A stretch of 64,000 nucleotides of DNA from Eledone cirrhosa (Eukaryota): contig OZ024742.1 in assembly GCA_964016885.1 (NCBI GenBank), positions 325,190,001-325,254,000 of the forward strand, in the 5' to 3' direction. This document shows, one piece after another, positions 22,409 to 52,014 of this stretch. The translations under genes and the position numbers were made by a program. The notes beneath the pieces are model-generated. The model was not told where the DNA came from. It saw nothing but the letters and a program-made list of their open reading frames with translations, and made no database searches. Each line of letters opens with the position of its first letter. Position 1 is the stretch's first letter.

Positions 22409-24294
22409 ATGGCTAATTCACCACTGCACCAAGCAGCTGAAAGCCTTTCTCACAAATTAACACCTCACACCGACACCACCATTGTAAATGATACTACGTC
22501 TGCCAACACACACAATTTAAGCACTAGCAATATTTTAAATTTATCTCAGGCAGACATTCATTTCCCGCCATTACCAATGACTGCAGGTGTTAAAGCCTCC
22601 ACCACAACCACCACCACCACCACCACCACCACCGCGACAACAGAAACAAAAGGAAAAAATAAATCAACTCGTGATGTCGAAATATTTTCAACCAAAATGG
22701 ACTCTCCCAAACCGAACTTCACTGACGTCACCACCACCACAACTGAAACTAAAATTAATAATAACAAAAATAACGATAGCAACAACAACAACAATGACAT
22801 TAAAAAAACCACCCTGAGTTTTGCCAGAGTAGCAAAACAGTGCGAAGCATATACAGTAACTCAGGAAGAATTAGAAAATGCCAAACAAATGGTAAAGAAA
22901 GCTGGGTACAGGGTCAGCCCCCCCCCCACCTAATAAAATGGAGCATCGGCGCCTATGCACCGTGTCGTATCGAACAATAAATGTAAAATCGCGCCGAGTG
23001 GAACGGGCATCCGAGGTCCCAAATACAAAAAGCTTTGGAACATGTGTGGGCAAGAAAAACCCACATCAGACGTGGGCAGAAGTATGGAACCGTGGACGTG
23101 TTCTTTGAAACACCAGAGGAGGCTAGAGAACACTCCATGGCCCCATTAAGAAGTGACGACTTTACACTCGTCCCAAGCTATTGTGGCCAGAGACTCGTAA
23201 AGATCAGGGTGACCCACGTTCCACCGGCCATCGAAATTCCCTGGCTAATAGCGACCGTCCTCGCCGGCATCGAAGCAAACACAAAGATAATAGCAATAGC
23301 AAAAGAAAAGCAGGAGAACTGGTCCGGATCTGGGATGGAGCTCCTGATCCAAGCGGACCAAAAAAGCATTGAGGAGATCCTAGAGGTAATAGACCTCACT
23401 GACGGCAGCCACCTCACCGTAATTGTCGAGGGCAGAAGGCCCAGGTGTGTCGTTTGTGGTGAAGGAACCAACCTAAGGGCTTTCTGCCCTCAGGCTAAAA
23501 GGTTGAGGCCACTTCTCCTACCCACCCCAGTGACACAACCATCAACACCACCAGTAGCAGAGATGGCAGCAACAACTGTAGCAGTAACAACAGAAGCAAC
23601 TATAACAGCAACAGTAGCAAAACCAACACCACCACCACCAGCAAAACCAGCGCCACCACCACCCAACGCTTCAGAACTAGCACCAGCGCCTACACCATCC
23701 ACCACGCCACAACCAAAACTAACGCCTGTGGAGGATTTTCCACTCCCCGGCCTATCACAACTGGAGACAGATTGTGACGACGAGGAGTGGGAAACGGTAT
23801 CAGGAAAAAAAAAAGAAAGCAAAAAAGTTAGGACAGATATGCCACCATCCACACCAGCATCACCAACCCCATCAACCCAAACACCAACACCATCACCATC
23901 ATTAACCCCAACACCACCATCACCTACACCACAAAAGTCACCAAAATGCGAAACAGAAACAAACCCACAACAAACGCAAACAAAACAAAACAACCAAAAC
24001 GATACACACTACACAGCATTAAATTTGAACAACAAGCAATTATTACACTACATCCAACACAACACCAGCATCACAGAAAAAGACTACACAAAAACCCCAA
24101 AATTCACACCACTTCCACACATACAAATCACTCGCATCACACAGAAAACGTACATGACACTAAAACAAAAATTCCCCAAAGACATCGGAGACTTCCGACA
24201 AGCACTCTCCAGGAGGATTTATAAGGACATCCTTCCCCTGGAGGCCACAATTGTGAAAAGGATGGAAAAACCGTCCTTCCTCTACGAGAAGTAA
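22409..24294 (+). pseudogene. T2 ORF1 (Tx1-type ORF1, zinc knuckle, Pro/Thr-rich), frameshift in poly-C ~22925
   Basis: Track ORFs 22409-22933 and 23035-24294 join with removal of one C; VEGRRPRCVVCGEGTNLRAFC; homologous to T3 ORF1. Confidence 0.85.
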
Positions 24295-24333
24295 GGTAAG
24301 TGGTCTTTCCCATCTTTTCCACTCCTTTTCAAC

Positions 24334-27300
24334 ATGACCTCACTCAGAATAGGCAGCATAAATGCGCGTGGTGGGGTCGTCATGGAAGCAGGGCCACCTG
24401 CTCAACGACCTCAGGTCACTAAACATAGATGTAGTGGCCATCAGCGAGACTAGAATCTCCGAAGCACGGGCCTTCGCACCGATCTTCGGCGGCCACGATG
24501 TGTACGCATCGCCCAGCCATCCGGGATCGGGGAGAGGAGTTGCTGTGCTTTTTCGCAGAGGTTTGGATCTTGCCATACGGGCCATCTTCCTGGACCCAGA
24601 AGGTAAGTTGGTGGTGCTGGACGTGACCAGCGGAGACGGGCAAGCTTTCAGGTTAGTGGCCGTCTATGCCCCGAAAGGAGCAGGGCGGCCTGATTTCTTC
24701 CGGCGTCTGAAGACCTTTCTTGGAACGTCCCGCTCTTTAGTGTTAGTGGGTGACTGGAAAGGGATCTTAGATGCACGCTGGGATTGTGTGGGATTAGTGG
24801 ATAGGGAAGGAGGGTGCAAGAGTCTCACCAACCTGCTCAGGCGTTTTGAACTGTCTGACAGGTACCTATTGGATTTCCCGAATGTACCAATGTGGACTTG
24901 GACAAATCGCATAGGGTCATCCAGATCATATCTAGATAGAGTATTTTGTAGGGAAATAGATAGTTCTAGCATAGGCTGTCCACAATTCAAGATAGTCAGC
25001 TACACAGACCACAAATTCGTGATCTGTGTGCTTGACTTAGATAGGCTTCATAGACGAGGATCCGGCTACTGGAAGCTAAACGCGTCCTTACCAGCGCGCA
25101 ATGCCTACAAAGACCGGATTACAAACTAGTTAAGCGGGCGTTGACGGGGGCCATCGTCAATAACAAGTGGTGGTTTGCTCTGAAAAGAGCAATTAGAATA
25201 GAGTCCATTAGGTTTAGTAAGGCTTTAGCAATAGAGAAAAATAGAGCAGAGGGAGAATTAGTTAGAAAATTAGACGAGGCGCTTAGCAAAGGCATCGCGA
25301 CCGACGTACTTGCGGCGAAATTGGCCCTTGACCAATTCTTCAATGCAAAGCACGAAGGCTGCGTTGTCAGAGCTAGGGTGCGTGCTCTCAGAAACGAGGG
25401 GACGAAAGCCGTTCAATGGGCCCGAGTGGCGGAGGCGCGTCGTGGCAACAAAGCCACGATCCGGTCTTTGGTGGACCACGACGGGCGCATGCTACTCGAT
25501 CCCGGGAAAATGTGTGAAGCTTTTCAGCGACACTTCACTCAAATGTTCGGGGGCAGTGGCCGCCCGGATCGAGGGATGGACTTTAGTGTCTACCTCGACG
25601 GACTGCCGCGGCTTTCGACCACTGAGGCGGAGTGTTGCGAAAAGCCGATAACAACCGCTGAAGTACGGGAGGCAATGACTGGCTGCACAATGGGTAAATT
25701 GCCTGGTTTGGATGGTCTGCCCTATGAACTTTACGTACAAATGCCAGACTTGTTCGGAGGCCTCTTGGCGGACGTCTACTGCAACTGGCAACAGAACGGG
25801 AGAATTCTCAGCTCTGTGAGACGAGGAGCGGTGGTGCTGCTGAGAAAGGATCCGAACAAGGAGGATAACATAGATAATTTTAGGCCCATAACTCTGCTAA
25901 ACACAGAGTTCAAGATTTTGGCCAAGGTGCTAGCAAAGAGGTTGGCGCTAGTCGTTGGTGGTCTGGTGGGAGAGGCACATACATGCGCCATTCCCGACAG
26001 ATCCATCCACGACAACCTCCACCTCATACGATACATCGTAGAGAGGGTAGCTAGGGAACCTGGCACGGGTGGGTCTTTGATCAATTTAGATCAGTCGAAA
26101 GCCTTCGATAGGGTCGACCATCGTTACCTAGCGGCAGTCCTGAGGGCGGCTGGCTTTGGGCTCGTCTTCAGAGGCTGGATCGCTGCCATGCACAGCGACA
26201 TCTGCTCTGTAGTGAGAGTGAACGGTCACCTTTCGGAACCGTTCAACATCATGCGCTCGGTCCGCCAAGGATGTCCCATCTCGTCTCTATTGTACGTATT
26301 GACTCTCCAGCCATTACTGCACAAACTGGAGACGTTGAGGGGGTCCCGCGCGAACTAGGATGCGGAAGATCCGTGTCAGCATATGCGGACGATGTCACCG
26401 TAGTGGTGTCGAACGTCAAACACATCGAGGCGATCGGCACTACACTAAGAGAATACGAAGCGGTGACAGGAGCAATGATCAACCAGGAAAAGTCAGTGGG
26501 CCTGCAGCTCGGCACCTGGATAGGCAGGTCCATGCCGTCCAACAGCGTCGTCGGGCGCTGGACGGACGGACCGGTTAAATTGCTAGGGGTCTGGTTCGGT
26601 CCAGACCTCCAGACGGACAAAAACTGGGACGAGGTGACGAGCAGGGTGGCTTCTCTCACCCAGAAATGGGCCGAGAGGAAGCTATCCCTGAAAGGTCGAG
26701 CGGAGGTGGCTAACGCGTACATCGCGTCCGTCATCTACTACCGCCTGACCGTCGTACCTTGTCCTAAGCCCCGCCTGACTCCGCTGGAGCGTTTGCTCTT
26801 TCGCTTTTTGTGGAAGGGACGCGCTCCGATGGTCAGGCGGTCCATCTGCTGTCAATACCCGCTACGTGGAGGGCTGGGCATGCCGTGGCTGATGATGCAC
26901 AGACACGCGCTCAGGCTACGACATCTCCACCTCTTCCTCGACGGTGATCAGGTGTGGTCGCCGTTTGCTAGACACGTTTTTCCCCAGCTCGTTTCCATGA
27001 CGGAGCTGCAGTCCTGGGTCAAGCGAAGACCGAGAGGGAGCGCTTGGAGACTGGAATGTCTTCAGGCGCTCACAGTCCTCGACCAATCGGGCAATGTGAT
27101 CGGTGGAAACTCCACCTTGGCGTTCTATAGTGGATTAGTGGAGGGGAAGAGCGACGACGTACTCGGACTCGGAGAAACTCTAGGCGTCGACGAAAATCAA
27201 CTAGCCAATCTCTTCGGAAGGACTTTCGGGTCGGGGCCTATGGACAACTTCCAGAAATCCCTGGCCTGGCAGTGCTACCGGAGAGCTTTGCCAGTTCGGG

Positions 27301-27755
27301 ATAAACTCTACAGGCATGGAGGTGCCGTCAGCCGGGCATGTCCGAGATGCGCACAGGGCGACGAAACCGTCCTGCACGCACTCGTCCAGTGTCCGAGCAT
27401 TGCTGACTTGTGGGTTTATGTCGAACACCTGCAGTCACGTGTAGGACGGATCCAGCTATCAGCTGAGACCAGCGTGAGGATTGCCCCGCCCTCTTCCTTT
27501 AGCCGGGAAGGGCAGACAGTTTTTATCTGTCTGGTGGCCATGGCGAAAGAGATAGTATGGTGGACACGTTTGAAAGGGCTGAAGACGAGCACTTACCTCT
27601 TCGGTAATGCCCTGATTAACTTTTTCAAATTTCATTTGAAAAGGAAAATCAGGGTAGAGAGGGAAGTGCTCTCTTCCCAGCATTTTGTTGAAAGATGTGT
27701 GAGAGAAGCAAGTATGGCCCGAATGAATGGGCCTTCTCTGAGTATGTGTCTGTAA
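24334..27755 (+). pseudogene. T2 ORF2 APE endonuclease + RT + C-terminal zinc finger, about three frameshifts
   Basis: GSINAR, ISET, SYLDR, TDH, PGLDG, FRPITLLN, KAFDRV, RQGCP, YADD, CPRC..ETVLHALVQC across track ORFs 24362-25129, 25141-26358 and 26271-27755. Confidence 0.92.
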
Positions 27756-28020
27756 ATTAAATGTGGAAAACTGGGAGAGGGCACTTGCCCTGGTGGTCAG
27801 GGTCACTGTGGTCTTTTAATGGGCTTTCTCCACAAATGTCCCTCGGAAGTCTCCCTCCTATTGGGGAATTTTTCTTTGTTATTTTATTACATCCTCTGTT
27901 TTTTTTACACGCAGAAATGCCCATTTGTACCGTCCTGTATTGTCCTGTACTGTCCTTAATGTCTACTTTATGTAAACCCTTGTGGTTAATAAAGAAAACA
28001 TTATTATTATTATTATTATT

Positions 28021-31000
28021 ACAGTTGCATTTATCTTGCTTTATGTTCATACGAGTTATCACCAAGTCACAACCAGTGACCTCATGAGACAACAAGGTCC
28101 GCCATGTTCAAGAAAGAACATACATACTCACACATGCATCTTTAGTGTTTAGACAGAATCTTCCTTAGTATATGGGCAGTTTCCATTAGTACTATCTTTT
28201 GTATTTCTCCTATACGCGGGTTTCCTGGGATTTGCGATAAGTAATTATTAGACCCCTTAGGTATCATTTCCAGAGCGCCTACAACCACTGGTATTGTTTT
28301 ACTTCTCAATTTCCACATTTTTCCAATTTCTATCTCCAGGTCCTTATACTTGCTCAATTTTTCAAATGTTTTTATAGATACATTCTTGTCTATTGGAACA
28401 GACATATCAATTAGCAGGCATACCCTCTTTTTAAAGTCCTTCAATATTATATCAGGTCTATTTGCATCTATTTTTCGGTCTGTTTGGATGCTAAAGTTCC
28501 ACAAGATTGAGATGTGATCTTTTTCAAGTATGGGAGGTGGTTGATGCTCCCACCAATTCTTTTGATGGGGCAGGTCAAAATGCTTACACATTATCCAATG
28601 TATGTATTGTGCAGCTCTGTCATGCCTGTTTAGGTATTCGGTTGGAGCTATAGGACTGCACATTGAAATTATATGGTCAATGGTCTCTGGTTGTTTTTTG
28701 CATACACGGCATAATGGGCTGCATCCATTTTTTATTATGTTGGCTTGGTAATTGTTTGTTGGCAGACACTGATCTTTTGCTGATATAATCAGTCCTTCAG
28801 TCTCCGATTTCAGTCCAGAGGATGCCAACCACTGATGGGTTAAAGTTTTGTCAACATCAGGACTGTTAGCTCGTTCTGGGTATTTTCCATACAGAGGCTT
28901 TTCTTGCCATTTCTTAGCCAGTTTCTGTAGCAGTTCTTTCTTTGCAGTTACTTTTACCTGCTTTGCTTTTTCTGTGTTTTCCATTTCAGCAGTAAATGGG
29001 ACTTCTAGATAATCCAATTGTTGCAGTTTTCAACGCAATGTCTAACTGGATTAACCCACCTCCTCCTTCTTTCCTAAGGAGATATATTCTATCTGTATCT
29101 GCCTTAGGGTGATGCATTCTGTGCATGGTTAAGAATTTTCGAATTTTTGTATCGAGCCTACGGATCTCTGTGCTTGACCAGTTGATGACATTGTAAATGT
29201 AGGTTACTACTGGTATGGCAAGCGTGTTTATGGCATCGATCCTATTCCTTGCATTCAATTCCGTTCTTAAGATTGCTCTTACTCTGCGGTAACATTCCTT
29301 CCTTATCCTTTCCCTCATTGTCGAGTGCTTGATTCCGTCTCCTTCACAAACACCTAGATATTTTAAAGTTTCCTCTTGATCAAGTTCTCTGATCACATTC
29401 CCCCGATCAAGATTAATGTCTGAACTTTTCAGCAGCTTTCCTCTGGTGAACGTTGCTTTGGCGCATTTATCTAGTCCAAACTCCATTTTAATGTCATCAC
29501 TGAACTGCTCCACAGTGGATAATAGCCCTTGCAATTGTTCATCATTTTTTGCAAATAGTTTCAGCTCATCCATGTAGAACAAGTGATTAATGGTTTTGTC
29601 ATAGACTTTATATCCATGTTTTGTTTCATTGAGCATTTTACTTAATGGTATAAGTGCGATGCAGAATAAAAGCGGTGATAAAGAGTCACCCTGAAAAATT
29701 CCACAATTAATATTAACTTCTCCAGCTTCCAGTGATTTTGTTTCACTATTCAAAAGGAGTGTCGTTTTCCATGTCTTCATACTGAATGACAAAAACCTCC
29801 TGATAAAGGGAGATATTTTGAAAATCTCTAAACATTTTTCAATCCAACTGTGTGACAAACTATCGAATCCTTTTTTATAATCTATCCAAGCAATTGATAG
29901 ATTTTTGTGTCTATTATGACAATCTTCCAGTATCATTTTGTTAACCAAAAGCTGATCCTTACAGCCATATGAGCCTCGTTTACACCCTTTCTGCTCAATG
30001 GGAAATAGGTCATTTGTTATCAGGTGGTCATATGTATATTCAGCTAGGACTGATGTTAACATTTTTTTACATTATAGTCAAGCAAGTTATCGGTCTGTAA
30101 TTTTTGGGATTGTTTGTCTCATCATTCTTCGGAAGCAGGAATGTAATGCCTTTAGGTAGCCATGATGGTATCTTTTCTGGCTCCTTAACTATTTCATTGT
30201 AAAGTTGGACTAACAGCCCATGAGACTCTGTGAAGGCATTTATCCAAAAGTTTTGTATTTTGTCTTTTCCTGGGGATTTCCATTTGCTGGTTTTTCTTAG
30301 AACCAAACGCAACTGTTTAACTGTTATATTTTCCCATAATTGTTCCTCAAGGTGAGCTGTATCTTTCATTTGTCTGTCTATCCATGGGGCATGTATATTA
30401 GGAACTTTTTCTTCGGCCCAGATATTTTCCCAGAATTCTTGCACTTCTTCCTTGGGTGGTATTGATTTAGCAGTTATTGTTGACTTACCAATTTTTCTGT
30501 AGAAGTTTCTTTGGTTGTTTTTGAACATATTATTGTCCTTATAGAATCTAGATCGTTTTTCAAAGCGCCTTATACGAGCAGCTTTGGCCGACACGTTTTG
30601 ATTGATTATTTCTATTAGCATGTCTATGTCACCTGTTGGTTTTATACTGTACTTTCTTTTCAATTTTCTAAGTTTAGTTTGTTCAACATGTTCACCTACT
30701 TTATAGTTTGTTAAAATTTCTATGTCAGATCGGAGAAGGTTTATTTAGCGATTGATGTTCTCTTGCCAAGTAGATTTCTTGTGGGAATTCCTTTGTTTTT
30801 TCACTTCCCTCCACATAAGTGAGTGGTGACTTTAGCCGATGTTTAATAGAGATGATTTAAATCACTAATGTTTAGTTTGTTTGTGATGATAATGTTTTTG
30901 AGAATTATGTTAGTCTTGTGTATTATCTTTTGGTTCTGTTTGGAGTTCTGGATCTTAGGGAGGGTGTCTCGTTCCCCCATGTCAGATTCTTTCATTTTCA

Positions 31001-31309: not shown

Positions 31310-31547
31310 ATTATTATTATTATTATTATTATTGACGAAAGTGGATGTACGTTTTTTGAAGCTCCGTGAGTAAGCAATTTTTTGAGGATTAATTGTAGAG
31401 AATTGTTTATTTTTTGTACCGCTGAAGCATTATAAGACATTAATTTGTATCCTGTGAAGGAATAACTCATAATATTTGGGCCTTTTGGCCCAAATATTTG
31501 AACTTTATTTTGAAAAAAAAAATAATAATTTTTTTTCTCAAAAAAAC

Positions 31548-33458
31548 ATGGCGGAGCCACGCCCCCTAGAGGCGGGTCTGCTGTCGTGCAACGGCGACTT
31601 GAGCGTTGAGAGGAGAGGTGAGGCGAGGAGCGCCACCAGCACGAATGTGAGCAGCGACAGTGCCAGCACCAACGGGCCGAGCGGCGCGGAAGGTGGTAAC
31701 AGCGACAACACCAACACCAACAAGCCGAACAGCGCAGAAGGTGGTAATAGCGAGAGCACCAACAAAACGAACAGCACAGAGAGTAATAGTAGCGACAGCA
31801 GCAGCACCAACAAGGCCAACAGCACAGAAGGTAACCACGACACAGGGGAGAACAACAACAGCAATAGCAGCAGCAACACCAACAAGAACAACAACAGTGA
31901 CAACACCAACAAGAACACTTTCGCTGCTGTGGCAGCGGCTAAAAGGAGACCATGCTACAGCATCGACTTAACCAACAGAGAGGAAAAGTTGGCCCAGGCC
32001 TGGAAAATCATAAATCAAGAGCAGACCTGGGCAAACTTAACTGTCCCGGCAGAAGCCATTGAGGCAGTGGAAAAAAGAACGGTGCATTTCAGATGCATCT
32101 CAGTAGAGACAAAGAGGGCAGCGATAATCGCCCAAGCTGACATAGAAGCCGCACTGAAATACATCAGAGAGGACACAGACTTCATAGAGAGGGGCAGGCA
32201 ATACGGCACCGTTTCGGTGCTGTTCAAGTCTGAAGCCCTCGCTGTGAAGCATTCAATGACCCCTTGCAAAACCAGCAAGGTCATAATGTACCCCTCCCAC
32301 ATGGGAAAACGAATAGCACGTGTGCGCATTCCCAGGATTCCACCAGGACTTGATATGTGGTGGCTCCTGGGTTGCGTAATCGTGGAAGGAACGGATACAG
32401 TCCCGGTAGAGGCAACGAGAACTGCCAGGGACGACTGGTCCGGGGTTGATCTGGAGATACTGCTCCAAATCAGACCCGAAAACGTAAAAACAATCCCGGA
32501 CCACATCCGCCTCCAAAACGGGAGGGTGTTGCATATAATGACTGAGGGCAAAAGGCCGCATTGTTTCCTTTGTGGGGAAACGACACACTTGCGAGCCTTC
32601 TGCCCTCAACTGCCGAAAAGCGCAAGGGGTCGAAAGATTCCACTGCTGGCGACGCCGGGACAAGGACCACCAGCAACACCGTCAACAATGGAACCACCAA
32701 AATTGCACACCCAGGGGGGAAACGAGGAAAGCTCTCCCATTCCCCCTCCCCCCCAAAATACACACACGAACAAGAACATAAACACTCACTCAGACACAAA
32801 CACGCTCACAGCCACAGACCCCTCATCCTCCAGCAGTGAAGATGAGGGAAAACCAAAGTCCCCCAAAATACAAAAAACAAAACACAAAAAAAAAAGAAAT
32901 CCACAAAGCACAAACACCCCCACAAAAAAAAATACACACACCACCCACACAAACATTTTCCCCACAGCATCACCAACACAACCACCAAAATCCCCCAAAC
33001 GCAAACAAGCTAAACAGACACAAGAACAAATAGACACACAAACATCAGAAACTACAGACACCCCACCCACAACAAACGCAGACACAATAGAAACAACACT
33101 AACAAAGCTATCACCACCACAATCACACGAACAAATAAAACCCGAGCAACAAAACATTAAAAACTTCGTGCTTGCCAGAAGGGCCAACAAGGAATTGATG
33201 GCCCATGTAGCACGAAGCACAAACATCGAAAAAGACGGGGAAACATTTGAAGCGAGCACATTTCGCGTACCAGATAATTTGCTTCTGATGCGAATGTCGC
33301 TCGCTTCATACAAAGAAATTCGAAAGAGCTTTCCTCGGGATGTGGGAACCCCGAACGTAAAACCCACGTCAAGACTATTAAAGGGGTTCCCAAAAGAAAC
33401 CCCACAAACCATGGAGGTCGAACCACCCGACCTTCACAAGACCCCGGAAGGTAAGTAA
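31548..33458 (+). CDS. T3 ORF1 nucleic-acid-binding protein (CCHC zinc knuckle)
   Basis: Likely ATG at 31548 (aaacATGg); N/S/T-rich N-terminus, FAAVAA motif, CFLCGETTHLRAFC knuckle, P/T/K-rich C-terminus. Confidence 0.88.
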   Translation: MAEPRPLEAGLLSCNGDLSVERRGEARSATSTNVSSDSASTNGPSGAEGGNSDNTNTNKPNSAEGGNSESTNKTNSTESNSSDSSSTNKANSTEGNHDTGENNNSNSSSNTNKNNNSDNTNKNTFAAVAAAKRRPCYSIDLTNREEKLAQAWKIINQEQTWANLTVPAEAIEAVEKRTVHFRCISVETKRAAIIAQADIEAALKYIREDTDFIERGRQYGTVSVLFKSEALAVKHSMTPCKTSKVIMYPSHMGKRIARVRIPRIPPGLDMWWLLGCVIVEGTDTVPVEATRTARDDWSGVDLEILLQIRPENVKTIPDHIRLQNGRVLHIMTEGKRPHCFLCGETTHLRAFCPQLPKSARGRKIPLLATPGQGPPATPSTMEPPKLHTQGGNEESSPIPPPPQNTHTNKNINTHSDTNTLTATDPSSSSSEDEGKPKSPKIQKTKHKKKRNPQSTNTPTKKNTHTTHTNIFPTASPTQPPKSPKRKQAKQTQEQIDTQTSETTDTPPTTNADTIETTLTKLSPPQSHEQIKPEQQNIKNFVLARRANKELMAHVARSTNIEKDGETFEASTFRVPDNLLLMRMSLASYKEIRKSFPRDVGTPNVKPTSRLLKGFPKETPQTMEVEPPDLHKTPEGK

Positions 33459-33487
33459 ACCTTTCCTCTCCCATTCATCCTGCCAGC

Positions 33488-36400
33488 ATGGCCATAAGAG
33501 TAGGAAGTTTAAATGTTCGTGGCCTGGGGTCGCCCTGGAAGCAAGGGCACTTGCTCAACGACCTCAGGTCACTAGGAATGGATGTAATTGCCATCAGCGA
33601 GACCAGAATTTCCGACACACGCGCACTGGCGCCGATTTTCGACGATTATCAGATCTTTGCATCTGTTAGTCGGCCGGGAATGGGAGGTGGAGTGGCTGTG
33701 CTGTTTAGGAAATGTCTGGATCTCGAGGTAAGGTCAATCTTCCGGGATCCTGACGGAAAGTTGGTGGTCCTGGACGTGAGCAATAGCGAAGGTGGTGCCT
33801 TTAGACTGGTGGCCGTCTACGCCCCTACTGGGGCCGGTCGGCCGGACTTCTTTAGGCGCCTGGAAAACTTTCTGCTTACGTCTCGCCCTTTACTGTTAAT
33901 AGGGGATTGGAATGGCATCTTAGAAGCACGCTGGGATTGTGTGGGAGTATCTGATAGGAGCGGGGGGTGCAAAAGCCTCAAGTACCTGATCAGCCAGTTT
34001 CAACTGTCTGACAGGTACCGACTAGATTTCCCTAATGCGCCAGTATGGACCTGGACCAATCGCATAGGGTCATCTAGATCGTACATAGATAGGATTTTCA
34101 TTAGGAAAAGAGATAGAAATAGTGTAGGATGTCCACATTTTAAAACGGTTGCCTATTCAGATCACAAGCTTGTGATCTGTATGGTCGACCTAGATAAGAC
34201 ACGTAGGTTAGGACCTAGCTACTGGAAGCTAAACATGTCGTTTCCGGCACGTAAAGCTTACAGGGACCGGGTCAACAACTTAGTTAAGCAAAAGTTGACA
34301 GGGGGGGTTGTCAACAACAGGTGGTGGGGGGCACTCAAAAGAGAGATTAGAGCAACCTCGATAGGATTTAGCAAAGAAGTAGCAATAGAGAAAAATAGAA
34401 AGGAGGAGGGGCTGATAGCTAAGTTAGACGAGGCTATTTGTAGTGGCATTGCAACAGACGTGCTAGCGGCGAGAATGGCACTAGACCATTTCTTCAATGC
34501 GAAACACGAAGGTTGCATTGTCAGAGCTAAGGCGCGTGCTCTGAGGAACGAGGGAACCAAAGCTGCCCGATGGGCTCGCTTTGCAGAGACGCAGCGTGGA
34601 AATAAAACCACAATTCGGTCTTTGACGGATCGAGATGGACACGAACTGAGCAATTCCAAGCAGATGTGTGAGGCCTTTCGCCAGCACTTTGCTCGATTGT
34701 TCGGGAGGATGGGTGAGTCGGAGACGGCGGCGGACTTCAGTCCCTACCTCGACGGCTTGCCACGCCTCTCGACGGCCGACGCTGAGCGCTGCGAAGAGCC
34801 GATAACATCAGCCGAAATTCAGGACGCCCTTGTCGGCTGCTCGAGTCGCAAGTCACCCGGTTTGGATGGTCTGCCCTACGAGCTTTACGTAAATATGCCA
34901 GACTTGTTCTCCGATCTCCTCGAAGCGCTCTACTGCAACTGGCAGCAGAACGGGAGCATTCCCAGTTCTGTGAGCCGTGGCGTAGTGACGCTGATAAGGA
35001 AAGACGAGAACAAGAGGGACACACTAGATAATTTCAGGCCCATAACCCTGCTCAACACAGAGTTTAAGATTTTGGCCAAGGTGTTAGCGAAAAGGTTGGC
35101 GCTTGTCGTCAAAGATTTGGTTGGGGAGGCGCAAACTTGCGCAATCCCGACCAGGTCCATACACGACAACCTCCACCTCATGCGATACATCATAGAGAGG
35201 GTTGGGTGCAAACCTGGCTTCGGTGGGGCTCTGATCAATTTAGATCAATCGAAAGCATTCGATAGGGTCGACCATCGGTACTTGGAGGCTGTCCTCGAGG
35301 CGGCTGGCTTCGGCCCCGTCTTCAGAAGCTGGATCGCTGCAATGTACAGCGGCATCCGCTCGGTGGTCAAAGTTAATGGCCACCTCTCGGAACCGTTTCA
35401 GATCTCTCGATCGGTCCGTCAAGGATGCCCTCTCTCCTCACTTCTGTACGTATTGACTCTTGAGCCTCTACTGCGGAAGCTGGAGTTGTTGCAGGGCATC
35501 CCGCTCGAACCGGGACGTAGAAAGGCTGCGTCCGCTTATGCGGACGACATCACCGTGATGGTGTCGGACACCTCGGAAATCGAGGTGATCCGCACCCATT
35601 TGGAGGAATATGAAAGGTTGACGGGAGCAAAACTTAACCCGGAAAAGTCGGTGGGCTTGCAGCTCGGCACCTGGAGAGGCAAGTCCATGCCGTCCAACAG
35701 CGTCGTTGGGCGCTGGACAGACGGACCGGTAAAGTTGCTCGGGGTTTGGTTCGGACCAGACCTCCAGGTGGATAAGAATTGGGACGAGGTGACGAGCAGG
35801 ATAGCCAACCTCACCCAGAAATGGGCTGAGAGAAAGCTATCACTGAAAGGGCGGGCGGAGGTGGCGAACGCGTACATCGCGTCCGTCATCTACTACCGCC
35901 TGACCGTCGTGCCTTGCCCCCGTCCACGCCTCGCCAATTTGGAACGGCTCCTTTTCAAATTTTTGTGGAGGGGACGGGTCCCGTTGGTGAGGCGGTCCAT
36001 CTGCTGCCAGCACCCTCTTCGTGGAGGGCTGGGCATGCCGTGGCTAATGATGCGCAGACATGCGCTGAGGCTGCGACATCTCCAGATATTTTGCCTAAAC
36101 GGTGAACAGGTGTGGTCGCCGTTTGTTAGACGGGCCTTTCCGCAGCTCATCTCTTTGACTGAGCTGCAGTCCTGGGTCAAGAAGAGACCGAGACTGGGCG
36201 ACTGGCATCTGGAATGTTGCCAGGCGCTCACTGCACTCTGCAGGGTGGGCAATGCGGTCAGTGGAACTTCCACTCAAGATTTCTATAGAGGATTAGTGGA
36301 GGGCAAGTGCGATGACGTACTAGGAGAGGCTCTGGGCGTCAACGAAGTAGAACTGACCAGTATGTTCCGGAGGACTTTCGAGCCGGGGACGATGGATAAC

Positions 36401-36907
36401 TTCCAGAAATCCCTCGCTTGGCAGTGCTACCGGGGGGCGCTGCCGGTTCGGGATAAACTCTACAGGCACGGAAGTGCTGTCAGACGAACCTGCCCGAGAT
36501 GCGCGCAGAGCGACGAAACCGTTCTGCACGCACTCGTCCAGTGTCCGTGCATTGCTGACTTGTGGGGTTATGTCGAACAGCTATTGTCGCGTGTAGAACG
36601 GATCCGGCTATCGTCCGAGTCCATAGTGAAGATTGACCCGCCGCCTTCTTTTGGTCAGGAAGGGCAGGCAATTTTCCTCTGCCTGGTGGCAGTAGCGAAA
36701 GAGGTTGCATGGTGGACCAGGTTGAAAGGACTGAAGACAGACACTTTTCTCTTCGGCCAATCCCTCATCAACTTCTTCAAGTTTCACTTGGAAAGGAAGG
36801 TGAGGGTGGAGAGAGAAGTGCTGCCCCCCAGTACATTTACTGAAAGGTGGGTGAATGTGGCGAGAATGGCCCGTGTGAGTGGGCCTACTCTGATCATGCG
36901 CCTGTAG
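33488..36907 (+). CDS. T3 ORF2: APE endonuclease, reverse transcriptase, C-terminal zinc finger (1139 aa)
   Basis: GSLNVRGL, ISET, GDWN, SYIDR, SDH; SPGLDG, FRPITLLN, DQSKAFDRV, RQGCPLS, YADD; CPRC..ETVLHALVQC. Confidence 0.95.
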   Translation: MAIRVGSLNVRGLGSPWKQGHLLNDLRSLGMDVIAISETRISDTRALAPIFDDYQIFASVSRPGMGGGVAVLFRKCLDLEVRSIFRDPDGKLVVLDVSNSEGGAFRLVAVYAPTGAGRPDFFRRLENFLLTSRPLLLIGDWNGILEARWDCVGVSDRSGGCKSLKYLISQFQLSDRYRLDFPNAPVWTWTNRIGSSRSYIDRIFIRKRDRNSVGCPHFKTVAYSDHKLVICMVDLDKTRRLGPSYWKLNMSFPARKAYRDRVNNLVKQKLTGGVVNNRWWGALKREIRATSIGFSKEVAIEKNRKEEGLIAKLDEAICSGIATDVLAARMALDHFFNAKHEGCIVRAKARALRNEGTKAARWARFAETQRGNKTTIRSLTDRDGHELSNSKQMCEAFRQHFARLFGRMGESETAADFSPYLDGLPRLSTADAERCEEPITSAEIQDALVGCSSRKSPGLDGLPYELYVNMPDLFSDLLEALYCNWQQNGSIPSSVSRGVVTLIRKDENKRDTLDNFRPITLLNTEFKILAKVLAKRLALVVKDLVGEAQTCAIPTRSIHDNLHLMRYIIERVGCKPGFGGALINLDQSKAFDRVDHRYLEAVLEAAGFGPVFRSWIAAMYSGIRSVVKVNGHLSEPFQISRSVRQGCPLSSLLYVLTLEPLLRKLELLQGIPLEPGRRKAASAYADDITVMVSDTSEIEVIRTHLEEYERLTGAKLNPEKSVGLQLGTWRGKSMPSNSVVGRWTDGPVKLLGVWFGPDLQVDKNWDEVTSRIANLTQKWAERKLSLKGRAEVANAYIASVIYYRLTVVPCPRPRLANLERLLFKFLWRGRVPLVRRSICCQHPLRGGLGMPWLMMRRHALRLRHLQIFCLNGEQVWSPFVRRAFPQLISLTELQSWVKKRPRLGDWHLECCQALTALCRVGNAVSGTSTQDFYRGLVEGKCDDVLGEALGVNEVELTSMFRRTFEPGTMDNFQKSLAWQCYRGALPVRDKLYRHGSAVRRTCPRCAQSDETVLHALVQCPCIADLWGYVEQLLSRVERIRLSSESIVKIDPPPSFGQEGQAIFLCLVAVAKEVAWWTRLKGLKTDTFLFGQSLINFFKFHLERKVRVEREVLPPSTFTERWVNVARMARVSGPTLIMRL

Positions 36908-37157
36908 GCTGGTGAATTCGAGAAGGAGAGGGGTGCCCTTCCCGGGTGCCCTAGGAGCGTCGGGTGGCTCAGGACTGGTGGGGTGCTTGAGTCAACCCTG
37001 GGTGGTGATCCCTCTTATTGGGGAACTTTCATTGTTGTATTTTTATTGTTATTTTGTTTTTTGTTATTTATACTTACTCGATCTCTATGTAAACCCCCAC
37101 TGTCCCTGTCTATTGTGTTGTCCCCTATATGTCGGCCCTTGTGGCCAATAAATGAAA

Positions 37158-37199
<42 letters not shown>

Positions 37200-37212
<13 letters not shown>

Positions 37213-43773: not shown

Positions 43774-43812
<39 letters not shown>

Positions 43813-43910
43813 TAGTCGATCGACTTTCGTCAAATCGGACCGAGGAAACTATGTTTCCGTTGGTCTTTCCAATTGCTAATACTATCTATCGGTCGCAACT
43901 CCAGGTAGAA

Positions 43911-44495: not shown

Positions 44496-44672
44496 CTTCT
44501 ACAGGACTAGAACTGTTTCATTCGTTAGAAATCATCAGGGCTCCCTGATGATTTCTCACGAATGAAACAGTTCTAGTCCTGTAGAAGCTCTTCTATATTA
44601 AAACTGTTATACTCTGCTATGTATTGGGTACCTTACTTACTGTGGTTACCTCCGATTCAACCCGGAATAACT
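44496..44672 (+). mobile_element. Palindromic PLE remnant: head-to-head minimal hammerheads
   Basis: 45-bp arms 44496-44540 and 44543-44587; CTGATGA at 44545, ttc/gaa stem, GAAAC at 44564. Confidence 0.65.
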
Positions 44673-44694
44673 TATATATATATACATATATATA

Positions 44695-44890
44695 AAGCCT
44701 AAAGTCTGTCTTAAGCCAGAAGGTTCATTTGGCCGGTGCTTATCCCGGTCTCATGGCATGAAGCGACTGAGATTACAAAACTCCTCCCAGTCTATCGCAG
44801 GGTTAGACTCCCAGTTATTGCTGGTACTCGTTTTCAGCTGAGTATACTGGAGCAACGTGAAATGAAGTGTTTTACTCATGAACACATCAT
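44695..44890 (-). mobile_element. SINE, 5'-truncated copy of the 63661-63941 family
   Basis: Closely similar to 63661-63868. Confidence 0.85.
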
Positions 44891-46148: not shown

Positions 46149-46180
<32 letters not shown>

Positions 46181-46181
46181 A

Positions 46182-46230
<49 letters not shown>

Positions 46231-46236
46231 AATCTA
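46149..46236. repeat. (CTAT)n microsatellite, 5' flank of T4
   Basis: About 21 CTAT units. Confidence 0.95.
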
Positions 46237-46461
46237 GCTGTCGTCTGTTCTACAGTGTGGATGTCATTCACTTCGCACAGAAGTTTTGTTCAAATTTATT
46301 GAGGAAATTTTGTGAGTTCAAACTTAATTTTGATACAATTGTGTAGCTTGACCCTCCCTCTGAACTGTCAGGCGGTGGGTCAGCTCATATTTACCCCTCC
46401 TAGAGGTGAAAAACCTGTTTTAAAAAAAAATTGTGTAAAAAATTTCAATCGTCTAACAGAA

Positions 46462-48352
46462 ATGTTAAACGCAGCGAACGAAAATAGTGGTGGGGGGACA
46501 GCGGTAAGAGTTGTAAGCTCGCACGCTTTAGTCCCCCCTTCCTTCCCAACTAACGTCATAGAGAAGGAAGGAAAAATTAAAATAAAAACAGACGAATCTG
46601 CGGAGAAAAAAAATGACGAAAACACAAATCTGGACATGGATTCCAACAGCGAAAAAAAAAAATTTGAAAAATTGCATGACAATACTAATAACACAAACAA
46701 AGAAACAACAAACACAAAAATAACATTTGAAAATAACACCATAACAGAAAGCAAAGCAGACGACAAGATTTCATTTGCACAGAAAACAAAGATATCTTTG
46801 ACTTATATAGCGGAAAATATTTCAGATGTGGCACGAAGGATCACAGACGCCAAACAATACATAAGTGAAGGAGAGAATGGTATTTTATCGGTAAAAATGC
46901 CTCAAGAATTCACCAAAGACATTGAAAGCCGAACGGTCAAGTTTCGGACCATCAACAACAGTACAAAAAAACCTGAACAGCCTTCTCAAGCAGATATCAA
47001 AACAGTACTCACAGAAGTACTTAATGAAACCACTTTCATAAGAAAAGACAGACTGTATGGAAGCCTAGCAATTATCATGAAGAACGAATCGGCGGCAAAA
47101 AAATGTGCTTTGTCACCGATTCGTTCGAAAAATTTCACCTTTTATCCATCTTATATGGGGAAAAGAACTCAACGCATATGGCTGGATGCAATGATGCCAG
47201 ATGTGGACTACTGCTGGCTCATAGCTGGCTTCATCGATCCAGTGAATGACAACGTGATTTCCATTGGGAAAACCACAGGCAATGCGTTCAGTGGAACAGG
47301 TATAGAGCTGGTAGTGCAAATGAAGCCTGAACGCATCGCCCAAATACCCGACAGAATCCTATTAGAGGACCACGGGTATATAAACATTAGCGTGGAGGGG
47401 AGAAGGCCGTCCTGCCATATCTGTGCAGGCACCTGAAGGCCGCTTGTCCCCAACTCAACAAAAAGAAAACCCTGCTACCAACACCAGCTCCACCACCACC
47501 ACCACAACAGATAAACAAACAACAAAACTCAGTCCCACCCAACCCGTCCCTCAGTAAAACCACAACACCACCACAACACAAACAGTCACAACACATTACC
47601 CCAAAACAAAATACAGGCCCACCCAACCTCTCACTCAATAAAACAACACAACCACCGCAGACACAACACACAACACAGTCTAACATAGTGACATCCATAT
47701 CCCCCACAAAGAAAACCAACACGGAAACATTACCAGCAAACATACCTCTTCCCTCCAACACTGAAGATAACCCAACGAATTTGGAGGAAGAAACGGAGTC
47801 CTTCAGACAGATCAAAAGGAAAAAAAGAAAACATGTGCAAAACACACAAGGCCAAACAACCCCCACCCAAATCTCAACACAATCCAACAAAACAGGAAAC
47901 ACCCCTCCAGCAACAAACAAAACCAAACCTGCCCCTCCCCTCTTCGAAACACTCACACCATCCGAAAAAAAGATATTACACTATACTTACATCAACAGAA
48001 ACAATAATAAATTAAATGAACTCATATACAATAATCCTTCGGTACAAACCGAAGGTGTAAACTTTGTTTCTTCAGAAAACTACCCACATTTAAAATTAAT
48101 AAAGATCCCAATGAACCTCTACCAAAAACTAAAAAAGGATTTTAAGGAGGATCTAGGACCACCCTCTGTCAAACCCATAAACCGCGTCCTACTAAAAAGC
48201 TTTCCCCCTCCCCTCCCCTCCCCAACACAACTCCAAACACCCCAACCCCACCACACACTGACGACCCCACACCACCACAAGACACCCCTTCACCCAACAC
48301 CCCCGACCCCATGGAAGTCGTGCAACCCGAACCCCGGGAAGCGGAAAGGTAG
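46462..48352 (+). pseudogene. T4 ORF1, frameshift in zinc knuckle (~47430) and probably one in the C-rich tail
   Basis: SFAQ motif, RTVKFRTIN, YPSYMGKR, VEGRRPSCHIC/HLKAAC. The alternative frame ends TPMEVVQPEPREAER*, matching T3 QTMEVEPP. Confidence 0.8.
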
Positions 48353-48385
48353 GTCTCTACACTCTCCTTTGGCTCTGCCGCCCAC

Positions 48386-51300
48386 ATGGATGTGTTAAGA
48401 GTAGGATGTTTGAATGCACGTGGCCTGGGCTCAACTTGGAAGCAAGCAAAGCTTCTAAATGACCTCAGGTCATGTAGTATAAATGTAATGGTTATCTGTG
48501 AGACTCGAATCAGCGTCGTGCGGCAGCTGGCTCCCACCTTCGATGACTTTGAGGTGCATGCATCTCTCTGTCAACCTGGAGGTGGGGGTGGGGTTGTCGT
48601 ACTGCTGCAAAAACACCTGGGTCTTGCCGTACAGGTTGTGCACTCGGACCCGGAGGGTCGTTTGTTGGTGCTAGACGTTGGCAGTAGTGAAAGTGCGGCC
48701 TTGAGACTGGTCGCCGTCTACTCCCCTTTCGGAGCTGAACGGCCCGACTTCTTCCAGCGTTTGGAGACTTTTATGGGAACGTCGCGTTCCCTGCTTCTAG
48801 CGGGGGATTGGAATGACATCCTGGATGCACGTTGGGACTATGCAGGAGATTGTCCTAATAGAGGGGTGTGTAACAGCCTCAAGGGGTTACTCGACCGTTT
48901 TAACTTGGTCGATAGATATCGACTAGATTTTTCAACTGTGCCTACCTGGACTTGGAGCAACCACGGTGGTCAATCTAGATCGTACTTAGATAGATTCTTA
49001 GTTAGAAGTAAGGATAGGGACATATTAAGCTGTCCAGAAATGCGCACGGTTGGCTACACGGATCACAAATTAGTGACCTGCGTGGTCAATCTCGAGAAAA
49101 CACATAGACAGGGTCCCGATTACTGGAAACTTAATTTGTCTTTACCGGCAAAAGAGACTTACAGAAACCGGATTAGCAGATTAGTTAAGGAGAGGTTGAC
49201 GGGTGCAATCGTCAACAACCGATGGTGGGCATCTCTCAAAAGAGAGATTAGAACAGAATCAATAAGTTATAGCAAGATGTTAGCTGCCGATAGGAATAGA
49301 AACGAGAAAGAATTAACAGGTAAATTAGAAGAGGCAATCAAGAGCGAAGATGTGGCCAGAGTGCTGGCATCGAGGACGGCCTTGAACCAGTTTTTCGATG
49401 CAAAGCACGAAGGCTGCGTCATTCGAAGTAAAATACGTGCTCTAGAAGCTAAGAGTGGAAATCGATCCACCATCCGGTCGTTGCAAGACGAAGATGGACG
49501 GGTGATCCGGGAGCCTAAGCAGATGAGCGAGGCCTTTCAAAGGCACTTTGCCCGATTGTTCGGGGGAGGCGAGGGTCCGGGCGGGGGCGTGGATTTCGGT
49601 CCATACCTCGACGGCCTGCCGCGTCTCTCGAGCGAAGAGGCAGAGTCCTGCGAGGGACCAATCTCGGCTGATGAGATCGGAGATGCGCTGAGCCAATGCA
49701 GCAGACGCAAATCTCCAGGTCTCGATGATATACCTTACGAACTTTATTTAGCAATGCCGGTCTTCTTCTCTGAACTCCTCGAAGCGGTCTACTGCAATTG
49801 GCAGCAGAACGGGAGAATTCCTTGTTCTGTAGCCAAGGGCGTAGTCACGCTGGTGAGGAAGGACGAGAACAAGGGGGATAGTATAAATAATTTTCGGCCC
49901 ATAACCCTGCTAAACACAGAGTTAAAGATTTTGGCCAAGGTGTTAGCAAAGAGGTTGGCGCTTGTCGTGGGTGGCCTGGTGGGAGATGCGCAGACATGTG
50001 CTATCCCATCCAGGTCCATTCACGATAACCTCCACCTCATGCGATACATCATAGAGAGGGTTGGCAACAAACCCGGCTTCGGTGGGGCCCTGATCAACTT
50101 GGATCAGTCTAAGGCCTTCAATAGGGTCGACCATGGTTACCTGGATGCGGTGCTAGCGGCGGCTGGGTTCGGTCCTGTTTTCAGAGGCTGGATAACTGCC
50201 TTACATAGCAACCACATCTGTTCTAGGATCAAGGTGAACGACTACCTTTCGAAGCCATTCGAAATCACACGATCCATTCGACACGGGTGCCCTCTCTCCT
50301 CCCTTCTGTACGTATTGACTCTCGAGCCTTTACTGAGGAAGTTGGAGTTGTTGCAGGGTATCCCCCTGGAACCAGGATTGAGCAAAGCGGTGTCGGCCTA
50401 CGCCGATGACGTAACAGTAATGGTATCGACCGACTCGGAGATCGAGGCGATCGGTACCTTACTGGAGGAGTACGAAAGGTTGTCAGGAGCGAAACTGAAC
50501 CGGGAAAAATCCATCGGGCTGCAACTCGGAACGTGGAGAGGCAGACTGATGCCTCCTGACGGTGTCGTCGGACACTGGACGGAGGGCCCGGTAAAGTTGC
50601 TTGGGGTCTGGTTTGGACCGGACCTCCAGGTGGAAAAGAACTGGAACGAGGTTACGAACAAGGTGTTTCAACTAACCCAGAAATGGGCCAAGTGTAAGCT
50701 GTCCCTAAAAGGCTTGGCGGAGGTGGCGAACATTTACATAGCGTCCGTCACTTACTACCGCCTGACTGTCGTGCCTTGCCCTAAGGAAACACTCACCACC
50801 ATGGAACGCATGCTCTTCCAATTTCTTTGGAAGAAGCGCCCTCCTATGGTGAGAAGATCCATCTGCTGCCAACAACCTTCGAAAGGAGGGCTGGGGATGC
50901 CGTGGTTGATGATGCGTAGGCACGCATTAAGGCTACGGCACCTACAGGTATTCCTCACTGGTCAACCGGTGTGGGCTCCGTTCGTGAAACGAGCCTTTCC
51001 GAGACTCGTCTCGCTCACCGAGCTACAGTCCTGGGTCAAGCAAAGATCCGGAAAACTGGGAAACTGGCACACTGAGTGTGCTCAGGCGCTCAGGGCTCTC
51101 TGGCAAGCGGGCCAGGCCATCGGTGGAGAATCCACCTCATCATTCTATAGAGGGCTGGTGGCTAGCAGGGGCGATGACACCCTTGGAGAGTCGCTGGACA
51201 TGGAAGAAGACGAACTGGCCAGCCTGTTCGGTAGGACTTTCGGCCCAGGACCAATGGACAACTTCCAGAAGTCACTGGCCTGGCAGTGCTACCGGGGGGC

Positions 51301-51781
51301 TCTACCCGTTCGAGAGAGGCTCTACAGACACGGACGCCCGGGCAGGGATCCCTCAAAAAAGATTTGCCCTAGATGCGTGCGTCACGAAGAAACCGTTGCG
51401 CAAGCATTGGTGCAATGTCCGGGCGTGGCTGATCTGTGGAGCTACGCCGAACGACTGCTGTCGCGGGTGGCGCCGATTAAATTGACCGCCGAGTCCGTGA
51501 TGACAATCAAACCGCCTCCCCTCTTCACAAAGGAAGCAAAGGCGGTTTTTCTGTGCGTAATAGCCATGTTGAAAGAGGTTGTTTGGTGGACACGATTGAA
51601 AGGTCTGAGGTCAGGCAACTTCCTCTCTGGCCATAGTCTGGTCTACTTCTTCCGATATCACTTCGGAAGAAGGATAAGAATGGAGAGAGAGGTGCTTGGC
51701 CACAGGCAGTTTTATGAAAGGTGGGTGATAGTGGCGAGAATGGCTCGTGTAAATGGGCCTTCTCTGTATACCATCCTGTAG
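48386..51781 (+). CDS. T4 ORF2 APE + RT + zinc finger (1131 aa, open but with lesions)
   Basis: All domains present; short in-frame deletion at RALEAKSGN; KAFNRV and RHGCP replace KAFDRV and RQGCP. Confidence 0.88.
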   Translation: MDVLRVGCLNARGLGSTWKQAKLLNDLRSCSINVMVICETRISVVRQLAPTFDDFEVHASLCQPGGGGGVVVLLQKHLGLAVQVVHSDPEGRLLVLDVGSSESAALRLVAVYSPFGAERPDFFQRLETFMGTSRSLLLAGDWNDILDARWDYAGDCPNRGVCNSLKGLLDRFNLVDRYRLDFSTVPTWTWSNHGGQSRSYLDRFLVRSKDRDILSCPEMRTVGYTDHKLVTCVVNLEKTHRQGPDYWKLNLSLPAKETYRNRISRLVKERLTGAIVNNRWWASLKREIRTESISYSKMLAADRNRNEKELTGKLEEAIKSEDVARVLASRTALNQFFDAKHEGCVIRSKIRALEAKSGNRSTIRSLQDEDGRVIREPKQMSEAFQRHFARLFGGGEGPGGGVDFGPYLDGLPRLSSEEAESCEGPISADEIGDALSQCSRRKSPGLDDIPYELYLAMPVFFSELLEAVYCNWQQNGRIPCSVAKGVVTLVRKDENKGDSINNFRPITLLNTELKILAKVLAKRLALVVGGLVGDAQTCAIPSRSIHDNLHLMRYIIERVGNKPGFGGALINLDQSKAFNRVDHGYLDAVLAAAGFGPVFRGWITALHSNHICSRIKVNDYLSKPFEITRSIRHGCPLSSLLYVLTLEPLLRKLELLQGIPLEPGLSKAVSAYADDVTVMVSTDSEIEAIGTLLEEYERLSGAKLNREKSIGLQLGTWRGRLMPPDGVVGHWTEGPVKLLGVWFGPDLQVEKNWNEVTNKVFQLTQKWAKCKLSLKGLAEVANIYIASVTYYRLTVVPCPKETLTTMERMLFQFLWKKRPPMVRRSICCQQPSKGGLGMPWLMMRRHALRLRHLQVFLTGQPVWAPFVKRAFPRLVSLTELQSWVKQRSGKLGNWHTECAQALRALWQAGQAIGGESTSSFYRGLVASRGDDTLGESLDMEEDELASLFGRTFGPGPMDNFQKSLAWQCYRGALPVRERLYRHGRPGRDPSKKICPRCVRHEETVAQALVQCPGVADLWSYAERLLSRVAPIKLTAESVMTIKPPPLFTKEAKAVFLCVIAMLKEVVWWTRLKGLRSGNFLSGHSLVYFFRYHFGRRIRMEREVLGHRQFYERWVIVARMARVNGPSLYTIL

Positions 51782-52014
51782 GTAAGGAAGTAAAGGAGAG
51801 GGGAGCACCTTCTCCATGTGCTCCCCGGGCAAAGGATTGCACACTTTTTCGGGGGTGTATGCAACCCCCATCACGTCCCCTCCCTTTTGAGGTTATTTTC
51901 GATTATTTTCATGTTACACCCTTTTTACTCGATTATATGTAAACTCCCCCTTTGTATTTGTCCCTTCTTTTTATGCCTTTATGGTAAATAAAGAAATCTA
52001 TCTATCTATCTATC

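Follow-up and report, generated by a model that had tools for sequence, protein, structure and literature searches.

The 64,000-nucleotide (nt) stretch of Eledone cirrhosa DNA analyzed here (contig OZ024742.1, positions 325,190,001 to 325,254,000 of the forward strand; hereafter the window) contains five copies (T1-T5) of a retrotransposon of the non-LTR type (without long terminal repeats) with two open reading frames (ORFs), set among microsatellites. We found that ORF1 of this long interspersed nuclear element (LINE) ends in a motif that matches a consensus 5′ splice site and is, judged by its conservation, under selection, and that the two ends of ORF2 carry complementary arms predicted to pair over 3.4 kb. 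An initial annotation of the window had proposed that the whole of ORF2 is an intron. The donor half of this proposal gains from a conservation that is independent of reading frame and host and from a hybrid family joined at the donor, whereas the acceptor half is not established. Our leading reading, which we hold to be about as likely as not, is that ORF2 undergoes regulated excision to give an ORF1-only mRNA, with the helix guarding the full-length RNA. This reading draws on the motif conservation, the complementarity and co-variation of the arms, and the hybrid joint as they appear in the sequence, from which we infer U1 binding, helix formation in vivo, the choice of acceptor, and the ORF1-only mRNA.

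A conserved donor motif at the end of ORF1

The initial annotation had described donor-like motifs at 24296 in T2, 33451 in T3 (both AG/GTAAGT, the slash marking the splice point), and 48349 in T4 (AG/GTAGGT), and all three were found in place (positions are those of the window, and all features of T1-T5 lie on its + strand). In T2, the donor AAG/GTAAGT (24293-24301) lies one base past the ORF1 stop; in T3, AAG/GTAAGT (33448-33456) is in phase 1, two codons ahead of the ORF1 stop; and in T4, AAG/GTAGGT (48346-48354) is in phase 2 and overlaps the stop. The distance of 37-38 nt to the ORF2 ATG reported earlier is correct for these copies (38, 37, and 37 nt in T2, T3, and T4, respectively) but does not extend to the family as a whole, in which the spacing varies from 27 to 45 nt over the lineages.

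For comparison, 40 fetched regions and the window yielded 29 elements with both ORF2 ends kept, after L135 (false start), L076 (chimeric ends), and copies without both ends had been left out before counting. Subsets of 15, 11, or 10 representatives were used, and a tree separated about ten lineages. When set against the general splice consensus, the ORF1 end was seen to carry G/GTRRGT in 15 of 15 lineage representatives, with positions -1, +1, +2, +5, and +6 invariant, A at -2 in 14 of the 15, and +3 and +4 alternating only between A and G. The donor was present in 27 of the 29 elements with both ends, the other two being old copies with a G-to-A change. By comparison, only 19 of 101 four-fold degenerate ORF2 sites were invariant in the same 15 representatives, and deep lineage pairs have 50-66% of such sites in common. 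Because the core of the motif is invariant where so few four-fold sites are, we conclude from this sequence comparison that the ORF1-end donor motif is under selection. Further, the donor was unchanged in 30 of 30 T3 loci and, among the matches listed, in 19 of 20 T2 loci, the remaining one having a point change at -2. Copies in which the donor is followed by a base other than G numbered 5 and 23, and all of these were point changes or one-base indels.

The position of the donor relative to the ORF1 reading frame is not fixed. It is in phase 1 in T1, the T3 clade, and L133/L143, in phase 2 in T4 and most others, and in phase 0 in L147-L150, and in T2 the stop comes ahead of the donor; these phases are backed by long open frames wherever ORF1 is intact and make four stop/donor arrangements in all. 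We also note that a distant family (loci L163-L201), in which 473 of 1139 ORF2 residues are identical (41.5%), carries a stop followed by G/GTAAGT 13 nt ahead of the ORF2 ATG in 18 of 18 copies among the matches listed. This family consists of tandem arrays of an intact two-ORF LINE on contigs filed under a bacterial metagenome-assembled genome, which presumably represent host DNA in that assembly. No relatives were confirmed in metagenome and viral contigs.

Two other features recur near these sites. Most lineages listed have a second donor-like motif, GTRAGT with a U-rich sequence after it, at 30-90 nt from their 5′ end (in the window at 31366, 46312, and 52077, and in L066, L068, L075, L077, L138, L143, and L148). 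It reads TCC/GTGAGT in T3 (31363-31371) and was not found in T2. A Met-Glu motif ~40 nt before the donor (33411-33416 and equivalents) recurs in most lineages, surrounded by low-complexity protein.

A hybrid family joined at the donor

In L031 and L061, the ORF1 end of the A/B lineage runs up to the exon side of the donor and is followed by the last 23 nt of F-lineage ORF1, which in the F lineage sit after CAG, i.e. at a CAG/ site 23 nt ahead of the F donor. The joint, which was picked out by eye, is found in 15 genomic copies. All 12 fetched hybrids are A/B-like upstream (best matches 71-86%) and F-like downstream, the best match of the downstream part being F at 94-96% in 11 and D in one. 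Because homologous recombination would not duplicate the shared segment, the joint is best read as a splice of read-through RNA from tandem copies. The hybrid family probably goes back to one event, and its sequence indicates that the ORF1-end donor has likely been used in splicing.

Complementary arms at both ends of ORF2

Starting at the donor, 45 nt are predicted to pair with 45 nt at the ORF2 stop, 3.4 kb away, at -26 to -46 kcal/mol. When ~240 windows of each element were ranked as partners, this pairing took rank 1-5 in 14 of 15 representatives and rank 11 in F, with z between -1.2 and -6.5. The core of the predicted helix sets the spacer and the ORF2 AUG against the last ORF2 codons, the stop, and ~30 nt of 3′ untranslated region (UTR). 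In T3, the 5′ arm (33446-33495; donor, pyrimidine-rich spacer, and ORF2 AUG) and the 3′ arm (36900-36950), which contains the acceptor-like CTGTAG/G (36902-36908), have a predicted duplex energy of -42.5 kcal/mol (z -4.9), the best of 15 partners. The T2 duplex (-39.2 kcal/mol, z -6.0, likewise the best of 15 partners) is predicted between 24291-24340 (donor, spacer, and ORF2 AUG) and 27750-27795, where ORF2 ends in CTGTAA (27755), a stop without AG. The predicted 3′ arm of T4, again with CTGTAG/G, lies at 51776-51821, and the T4 helix was scored on the T4-family copy L078 (-33.0 kcal/mol, z -2.4, rank 5 of 242).

We then have two measures of whether the arms belong together. The own-lineage partner scored best in 6 of 15 representatives, and over 10 lineages the excess of own-partner pairing gave p = 1e-5 by permutation, compared with nonsignificant values of 0.06-0.90 for 12 shifted control pairings. 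Further, consensus folds contained double (compensatory) changes at 8 of 131 inter-arm pairs (3/21, 2/34, 1/23, 0/31, and 2/22 in the five groups), three of them in the T3 clade. The donor end of the helix is rivaled by local hairpins, and its pairing to the 3′ arm was seen for 9 of 10 single co-folds and 2 of 5 consensus-fold groups. These results show that complementary arms at the ORF2 ends co-evolve, and the folding models suggest that the helix would form in vivo.

In the distant family, pairing with the sequence after the stop is absent (rank 93-257 of 261). Instead, the best partner of the 5′ arm lies 68-23 nt ahead of the stop; this was so for 7 of 8 copies and, with longer arms, for 5 of 8 (z -2.6 to -4.4). 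The site aligns with the T3 ORF2 end, and the predicted stem covers the AUG with 11 bp.

The start of ORF2 is itself altered in L147-L150, four young copies (~99.9% alike, G000:C1), all of which have ATA at the ORF2 ATG position. In L147, ~1,165 codons are open, and the first Met lies well within the endonuclease, which could mean non-AUG initiation or mobilization in trans.

The end of ORF2 as a candidate acceptor

As described in the initial annotation, ORF2 ends in CTGTAG in four copies, at 21870 (T1), 36907 (T3), 51781 (T4), and 54342 (T5), followed by G in three and by T in T1. The stretch before it was called pyrimidine-leaning, and in 10 of 11 lineages this AG is indeed in the top 1-19% of ORF2 AGs by pyrimidine count, but T2 is unremarkable. 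Among 39 distinct ORF2 ends, 29 are TAG (27 of them followed by G), nine are TAA, and one is GAG; in the distant family, the end is TAG/G in 16 of 18 copies. No branch-point motif common to all lineages was found.

When T3 is spliced in silico from the donor to this AG (proposed intron 33451-36907), ORF1 ends in PEGW and a stop instead of the unspliced PEGK and a stop, and T4 ends in ER and a stop either way, which reproduces the earlier model. In 7 of 11 lineages, compared with 3.3 expected, the modeled junction stops ORF1 within three codons in its own phase and thus preserves ORF1, whereas it fails to do so in the others; taking instead the first AG of the last 30 nt raises the number to 10 of 11. 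In the 4 lineages that fail, an AG 7 nt upstream would end ORF1 after two codons.

Several other properties of the ORF2 end were considered. The sequence after the stop was rejected as a second conserved donor in this genome, since it has GT in many copies and GC or TT in others, and a backup ORF2 stop was rejected because the downstream stops are out of the ORF2 frame. In the distant family, the stop is associated with a 6-bp hairpin with a TTAG or TTCG loop, and a donor lies 14 nt past the stop together with a short pyrimidine tract. In the last 20 ORF2 codons (36845-36907), synonymous codons seem to be kept above the ORF2 average, possibly marking a further cis-element.

Search for the predicted spliced product

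The 3.0-Gb genome contains 3,943 matches to the ORF2-start pattern and 20,649 to the ORF2-end pattern. A search for genomic copies lacking ORF2, which the initial annotation had named as a check on its proposal, went against it: no copy with the ORF1 end set against the 3′ UTR was found with six patterns, which cover T3, the T3 clade, T4 and C-F, T2, G, and A/B, with T1 and one E-type variant left out, and of which only two had a matched positive control (338 and 2,252 unspliced junctions). These missing copies speak against an abundant, trans-mobilized germ-line spliced RNA and not against one that ORF2p ignores.

In assembled sequencing runs of unrecorded kind, the predicted joint was absent among the best 15 of 1,045 contig joints on T3. 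Contigs of runs X1 and X2 have an even, genomic-DNA-like depth over ORF1. Run X4, also of unrecorded kind, gave 4 contig joints on T3, none of them 33450-36908, and single contigs of this run span the donor (33407-33982) and the acceptor (36844-37147). The contig depth of X4 was 191-197 over 32280-33436, 21 across the donor, and 20 on the 5′ half of ORF1, rising to 348 at the 3′ end, with a drop calculated at ~33440-33490; for a run of unrecorded kind this counts neither way, because contigs lose rare forms and contig depth cannot rank the parts of an element.

Proposed regulated excision of ORF2 and its alternatives

If ORF2 is excised, U1 would bind the donor at the ORF1 stop, and part of the transcripts would lose ORF2 by splicing to an AG at or just before the ORF2 stop, to leave an mRNA in which ORF1 has a stop beside the junction and the normal 3′ end is kept. 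In the other transcripts, the clamp would close as the 3′ arm emerges, covering the acceptor, the ORF2 AUG, and some of the donor, and the full-length RNA would be kept. Since transcription delivers the 3′ arm and the acceptor at the same time, splicing would compete with folding of the helix, and this competition would set the ORF1p:ORF2p ratio. The spliced RNA could escape retrotransposition because it would be without the helix and the conserved ORF2 3′ end. A bolder version, which we offer tentatively and hold to be possible rather than probable, is that this is an old LINE lineage with a retrovirus-like two-RNA strategy, in which all of ORF2 is a regulated intron, the clamp over the ORF2 start and end prevents the removal of this intron and singles out the full-length RNA as the sole template for retrotransposition, and the same donor, by splicing of read-through RNA, exchanges ORF1 modules among elements in tandem.

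A number of observations count against excision. With the six patterns, we found zero ORF2-less copies compared with 20,649 ORF2 3′ ends, even though the junction would lie only ~250 nt from the 3′ end. The AG-free zone and the pyrimidine count at the ORF2 end are modestly above those of other ORF2 AGs (upper 1-22%, the T2 pyrimidine count excepted). ORF2 of the T2 type ends in TAA in 8 of 8 copies (7 of the 8 have an AG 7 nt farther on), so that TAA is a family-wide trait and not decay of the window copy; the stop of the distant family is found within a hairpin loop, and 2 of 18 copies have TCG in its place. Conservation of CTGTAG/G needs no acceptor role because it is complementary to the ORF2 start context, and intron-exon pairing over both sites would block splicing, not aid it. 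The donor of the hybrid family skipped the acceptor of its own element, if it was there. The stop-after-junction test gave P values (0.009 with random phase and 0.018 with permuted phases) that are too small because the 11 lineages are related and may stand for four independent matches. The first-AG rule, moreover, was framed post hoc; on both grounds, the frame-matched stops are suggestive only. Overall, the acceptor is weaker than the donor, and we do not regard it as established, given its loss in T2, the TCG of the distant copies, and a conservation that pairing in the helix explains too.

The alternative that survives best, although we think it rather unlikely, is that the donor is a rarely spliced U1 docking site, at which U1 would aid elongation and curb early polyadenylation, and which the helix would mask once ORF2 is complete, such that only complete RNA leaves nuclear retention and CTGTAG/G is a by-product of the helix. 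This would account for the donor being retained where the stop-codon AG is lost (T2), for the second donor-like motif that most lineages have close to the 5′ end and the third just past the distant-family ORF2 stop, and for the lack of spliced genomic copies in the six patterns. There would, however, be little to suppress, since the ORF2 sense strand has only 0-2 AATAAA/ATTAAA in 15 of 15 representatives, and the in-frame stops after the junction would be left unexplained. Folding cuts both ways, since most individual co-folds join the donor to the 3′ arm but only a minority of the consensus groups do, and the hybrid family points to a donor able to splice. In the literature, U1 suppresses termination in the Arabidopsis retrotransposon EVD (PMC5580714), and mRNAs that keep a 5′ splice-site motif intact undergo retention and degradation (PMC9074902), both of which accord with a docking role.

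An unlikely explanation, and one to which we give somewhat less weight than to U1 docking, is that the helix mainly serves translation control, hiding the AUG until ribosomes ending ORF1 unwind it (termination-reinitiation) or bringing the ORF2 stop beside the start, with the donor having a separate and minor role or splicing to other acceptors. The persistence of a perfect donor at the ORF1 stop, both in all lineages and in the distant family, would then be unexplained, as would the frame-matched stops. Yet the part of the helix common with the distant family is the 11 bp over the ORF2 AUG, the pairing after the stop not being common to both, and RNA structure influences ORF2 initiation in SART1 (PMC3894237); the young family with ATA for the ORF2 AUG in 4 of 4 copies also bears on start-codon control. 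Finally, it is very improbable that the motifs are an inherited coincidence of stop codons (GTAAG contains TAA, and Leu-TAG is an ordinary ORF end), for although the stop overlaps the donor in phase-2 lineages and CTG TAG could be plain inheritance, the donor stays while the stop shifts through four arrangements, varies only inside the consensus, outlasts four-fold sites, and is present at 41.5% ORF2 identity, which by sequence already contradicts this explanation for the donor and leaves it a partial account of the acceptor.

Relation to known systems

HAL1 (half-L1) elements are ORF1-only elements and are what a retrotransposed spliced RNA would resemble; no such copy with the predicted junction was found here with the six patterns. 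The Tx1-clade elements Kibi and Koshi are similar to the present elements in having two ORFs, APE and reverse transcriptase (RT) domains with a C-terminal zinc motif, a zinc knuckle in ORF1, and insertion into microsatellites, but, unlike here, a conserved ORF1-end donor or an ORF2-spanning helix is not reported in the excerpts of that work (PMC4494074). A precedent for the logic of ORF2 excision is the shGAG RNA of EVD, a Ty1/copia element whose structural gene has, near its end, a conserved donor of the U1 type; splicing there yields an RNA for the structural protein only, and U1 also suppresses termination (PMC5580714). EVD, however, is an LTR element with a short intron over the protease, a link to early termination, and demonstration at the RNA level (PMC5580714), whereas here the proposed intron is the whole 3.4-kb ORF2 of a LINE, with a normal 3′ end and an added helix, and is predicted from DNA sequence. 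The architecture here is non-LTR, and Ty1/copia shGAG is therefore used as a working analogy only.

LINE RNA is also spliced in human L1, as in SpORF2 (PMC2896524) and the SpIREs (PMC5860796), and spliced RNAs that keep ORF2 were retrotransposed, as probably in the hybrid family. The L1 splices take out 5′ UTR or ORF1 sequence and are called inhibitory dead ends (PMC2896524, PMC5860796); the donor described here would instead remove ORF2. In SART1, ORF2 expression is influenced by RNA structure close to the ORF1/ORF2 boundary, as it might be by the helix here, but that structure is local and follows an overlapping stop-start (PMC3894237), compared with a 3.4-kb pairing and a 13-45-nt spacer in the present elements. 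We found no report in the open-access literature of an ORF2-spanning intron or clamp in any LINE, and a repeat annotation of one cephalopod describes active L1-Tx1 families, with "splic" absent from the main text as excerpted (PMC13282606).

It is an open question by what means two-ORF LINEs produce ORF1p in large excess over ORF2p and control ORF2 translation (PMC3894237). The donor and the ORF2-looping helix would offer a concrete mechanism for the ORF1p/ORF2p balance in a very active family, which has at least 20,649 3′ ends in the genome and whose nearly identical copies number in the hundreds. Even if the splice is rare, a 3.4-kb clamp over the ORF2 AUG, kept at 41% identity, would be a cis-element absent from the open-access literature found, and thousands of strong sense-strand donors can influence host splicing. 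The present work contributes the frame test over phases, the specificity test over 10 lineages, and the AUG-covering helix predicted in the distant family.

Family identity and other elements of the window

ORF2 of T3 and T4 matched the Pfam families Exo_endo_phos, RVT_1, and zf-RVT, as expected for a Tx1/L1-group ORF2, and the best PDB match of T3 ORF2 is human L1 ORF2p (E 1e-56). As also expected for this group, T3 has a separate upstream ORF1 with a nucleic-acid-binding motif, here a CCHC knuckle. Further, 30 of 30 T3 loci terminate in (ATT)n, and other lineages terminate in (ATCT)n-like runs. The putative label Tx1, assigned in the initial annotation, fits this anatomy and the Kibi/Koshi-like target preference. 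Tandem arrays at ~5.8-kb spacing occur elsewhere in the genome; at G000:C1:423365589-423418119, for example, ten T3-type donors spaced ~5.84 kb apart mark a head-to-tail array of full-length elements.

The copies in the window sit in one another's tails, and their 3′ ends run into (ATT)n or (ATCT)n. T1 (20877-22197) is 5′-truncated and retains a 3′ remnant of ORF2, the 3′ UTR, AATAAA at 22163, and an (ATT)n tail (tblastn and blastn), in which T2 (22198-28020) landed. T2 is full-length but decayed, with ORF1 split over two frames and two frameshifts in ORF2 (24334-27755). T3 (31334-37158), flanked by (ATT)n runs, is intact and very young: 36 scored matches are 99-100% identical, and its exact donor 18-mer occurs 338 times in the genome. 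T3 ORF1 (31548-33458) encodes 636 amino acids with one C-x2-C-x4-H-x4-C knuckle; no Pfam family matched it, and a database search gave no homologue with or without the spliced-looking C terminus. ORF2 (33488-36907) encodes 1139 amino acids with APE endonuclease, RT, and zf-RVT domains, and AATAAA and the (ATT)n tail/target follow at 37147-37212. T4 (46229-52011) is full-length within an (ATCT)n run, with one frameshift in ORF1 (46462-48352), an open ORF2 (48386-51781), and the 5′ donor-like motif at 46312. Rfam searches matched nothing.

T5 (52013-54570) consists of a 5′ UTR and start codon fused at 52215/52216 to the middle of ORF2, with CTGTAG/G at 54342. We rejected T5 as a spliced copy, since related 5′ ends read on without a GT at the joint, which points to an internal deletion of ~3 kb. 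Lastly, the window holds four further RT-bearing remnants, three of them with weak or partial RVT_1 matches: two related G-rich copies at 8861-11597 and 54938-58177 (both on the - strand) and two unrelated remnants at 17465-19087 (+) and 28142-30744 (-).

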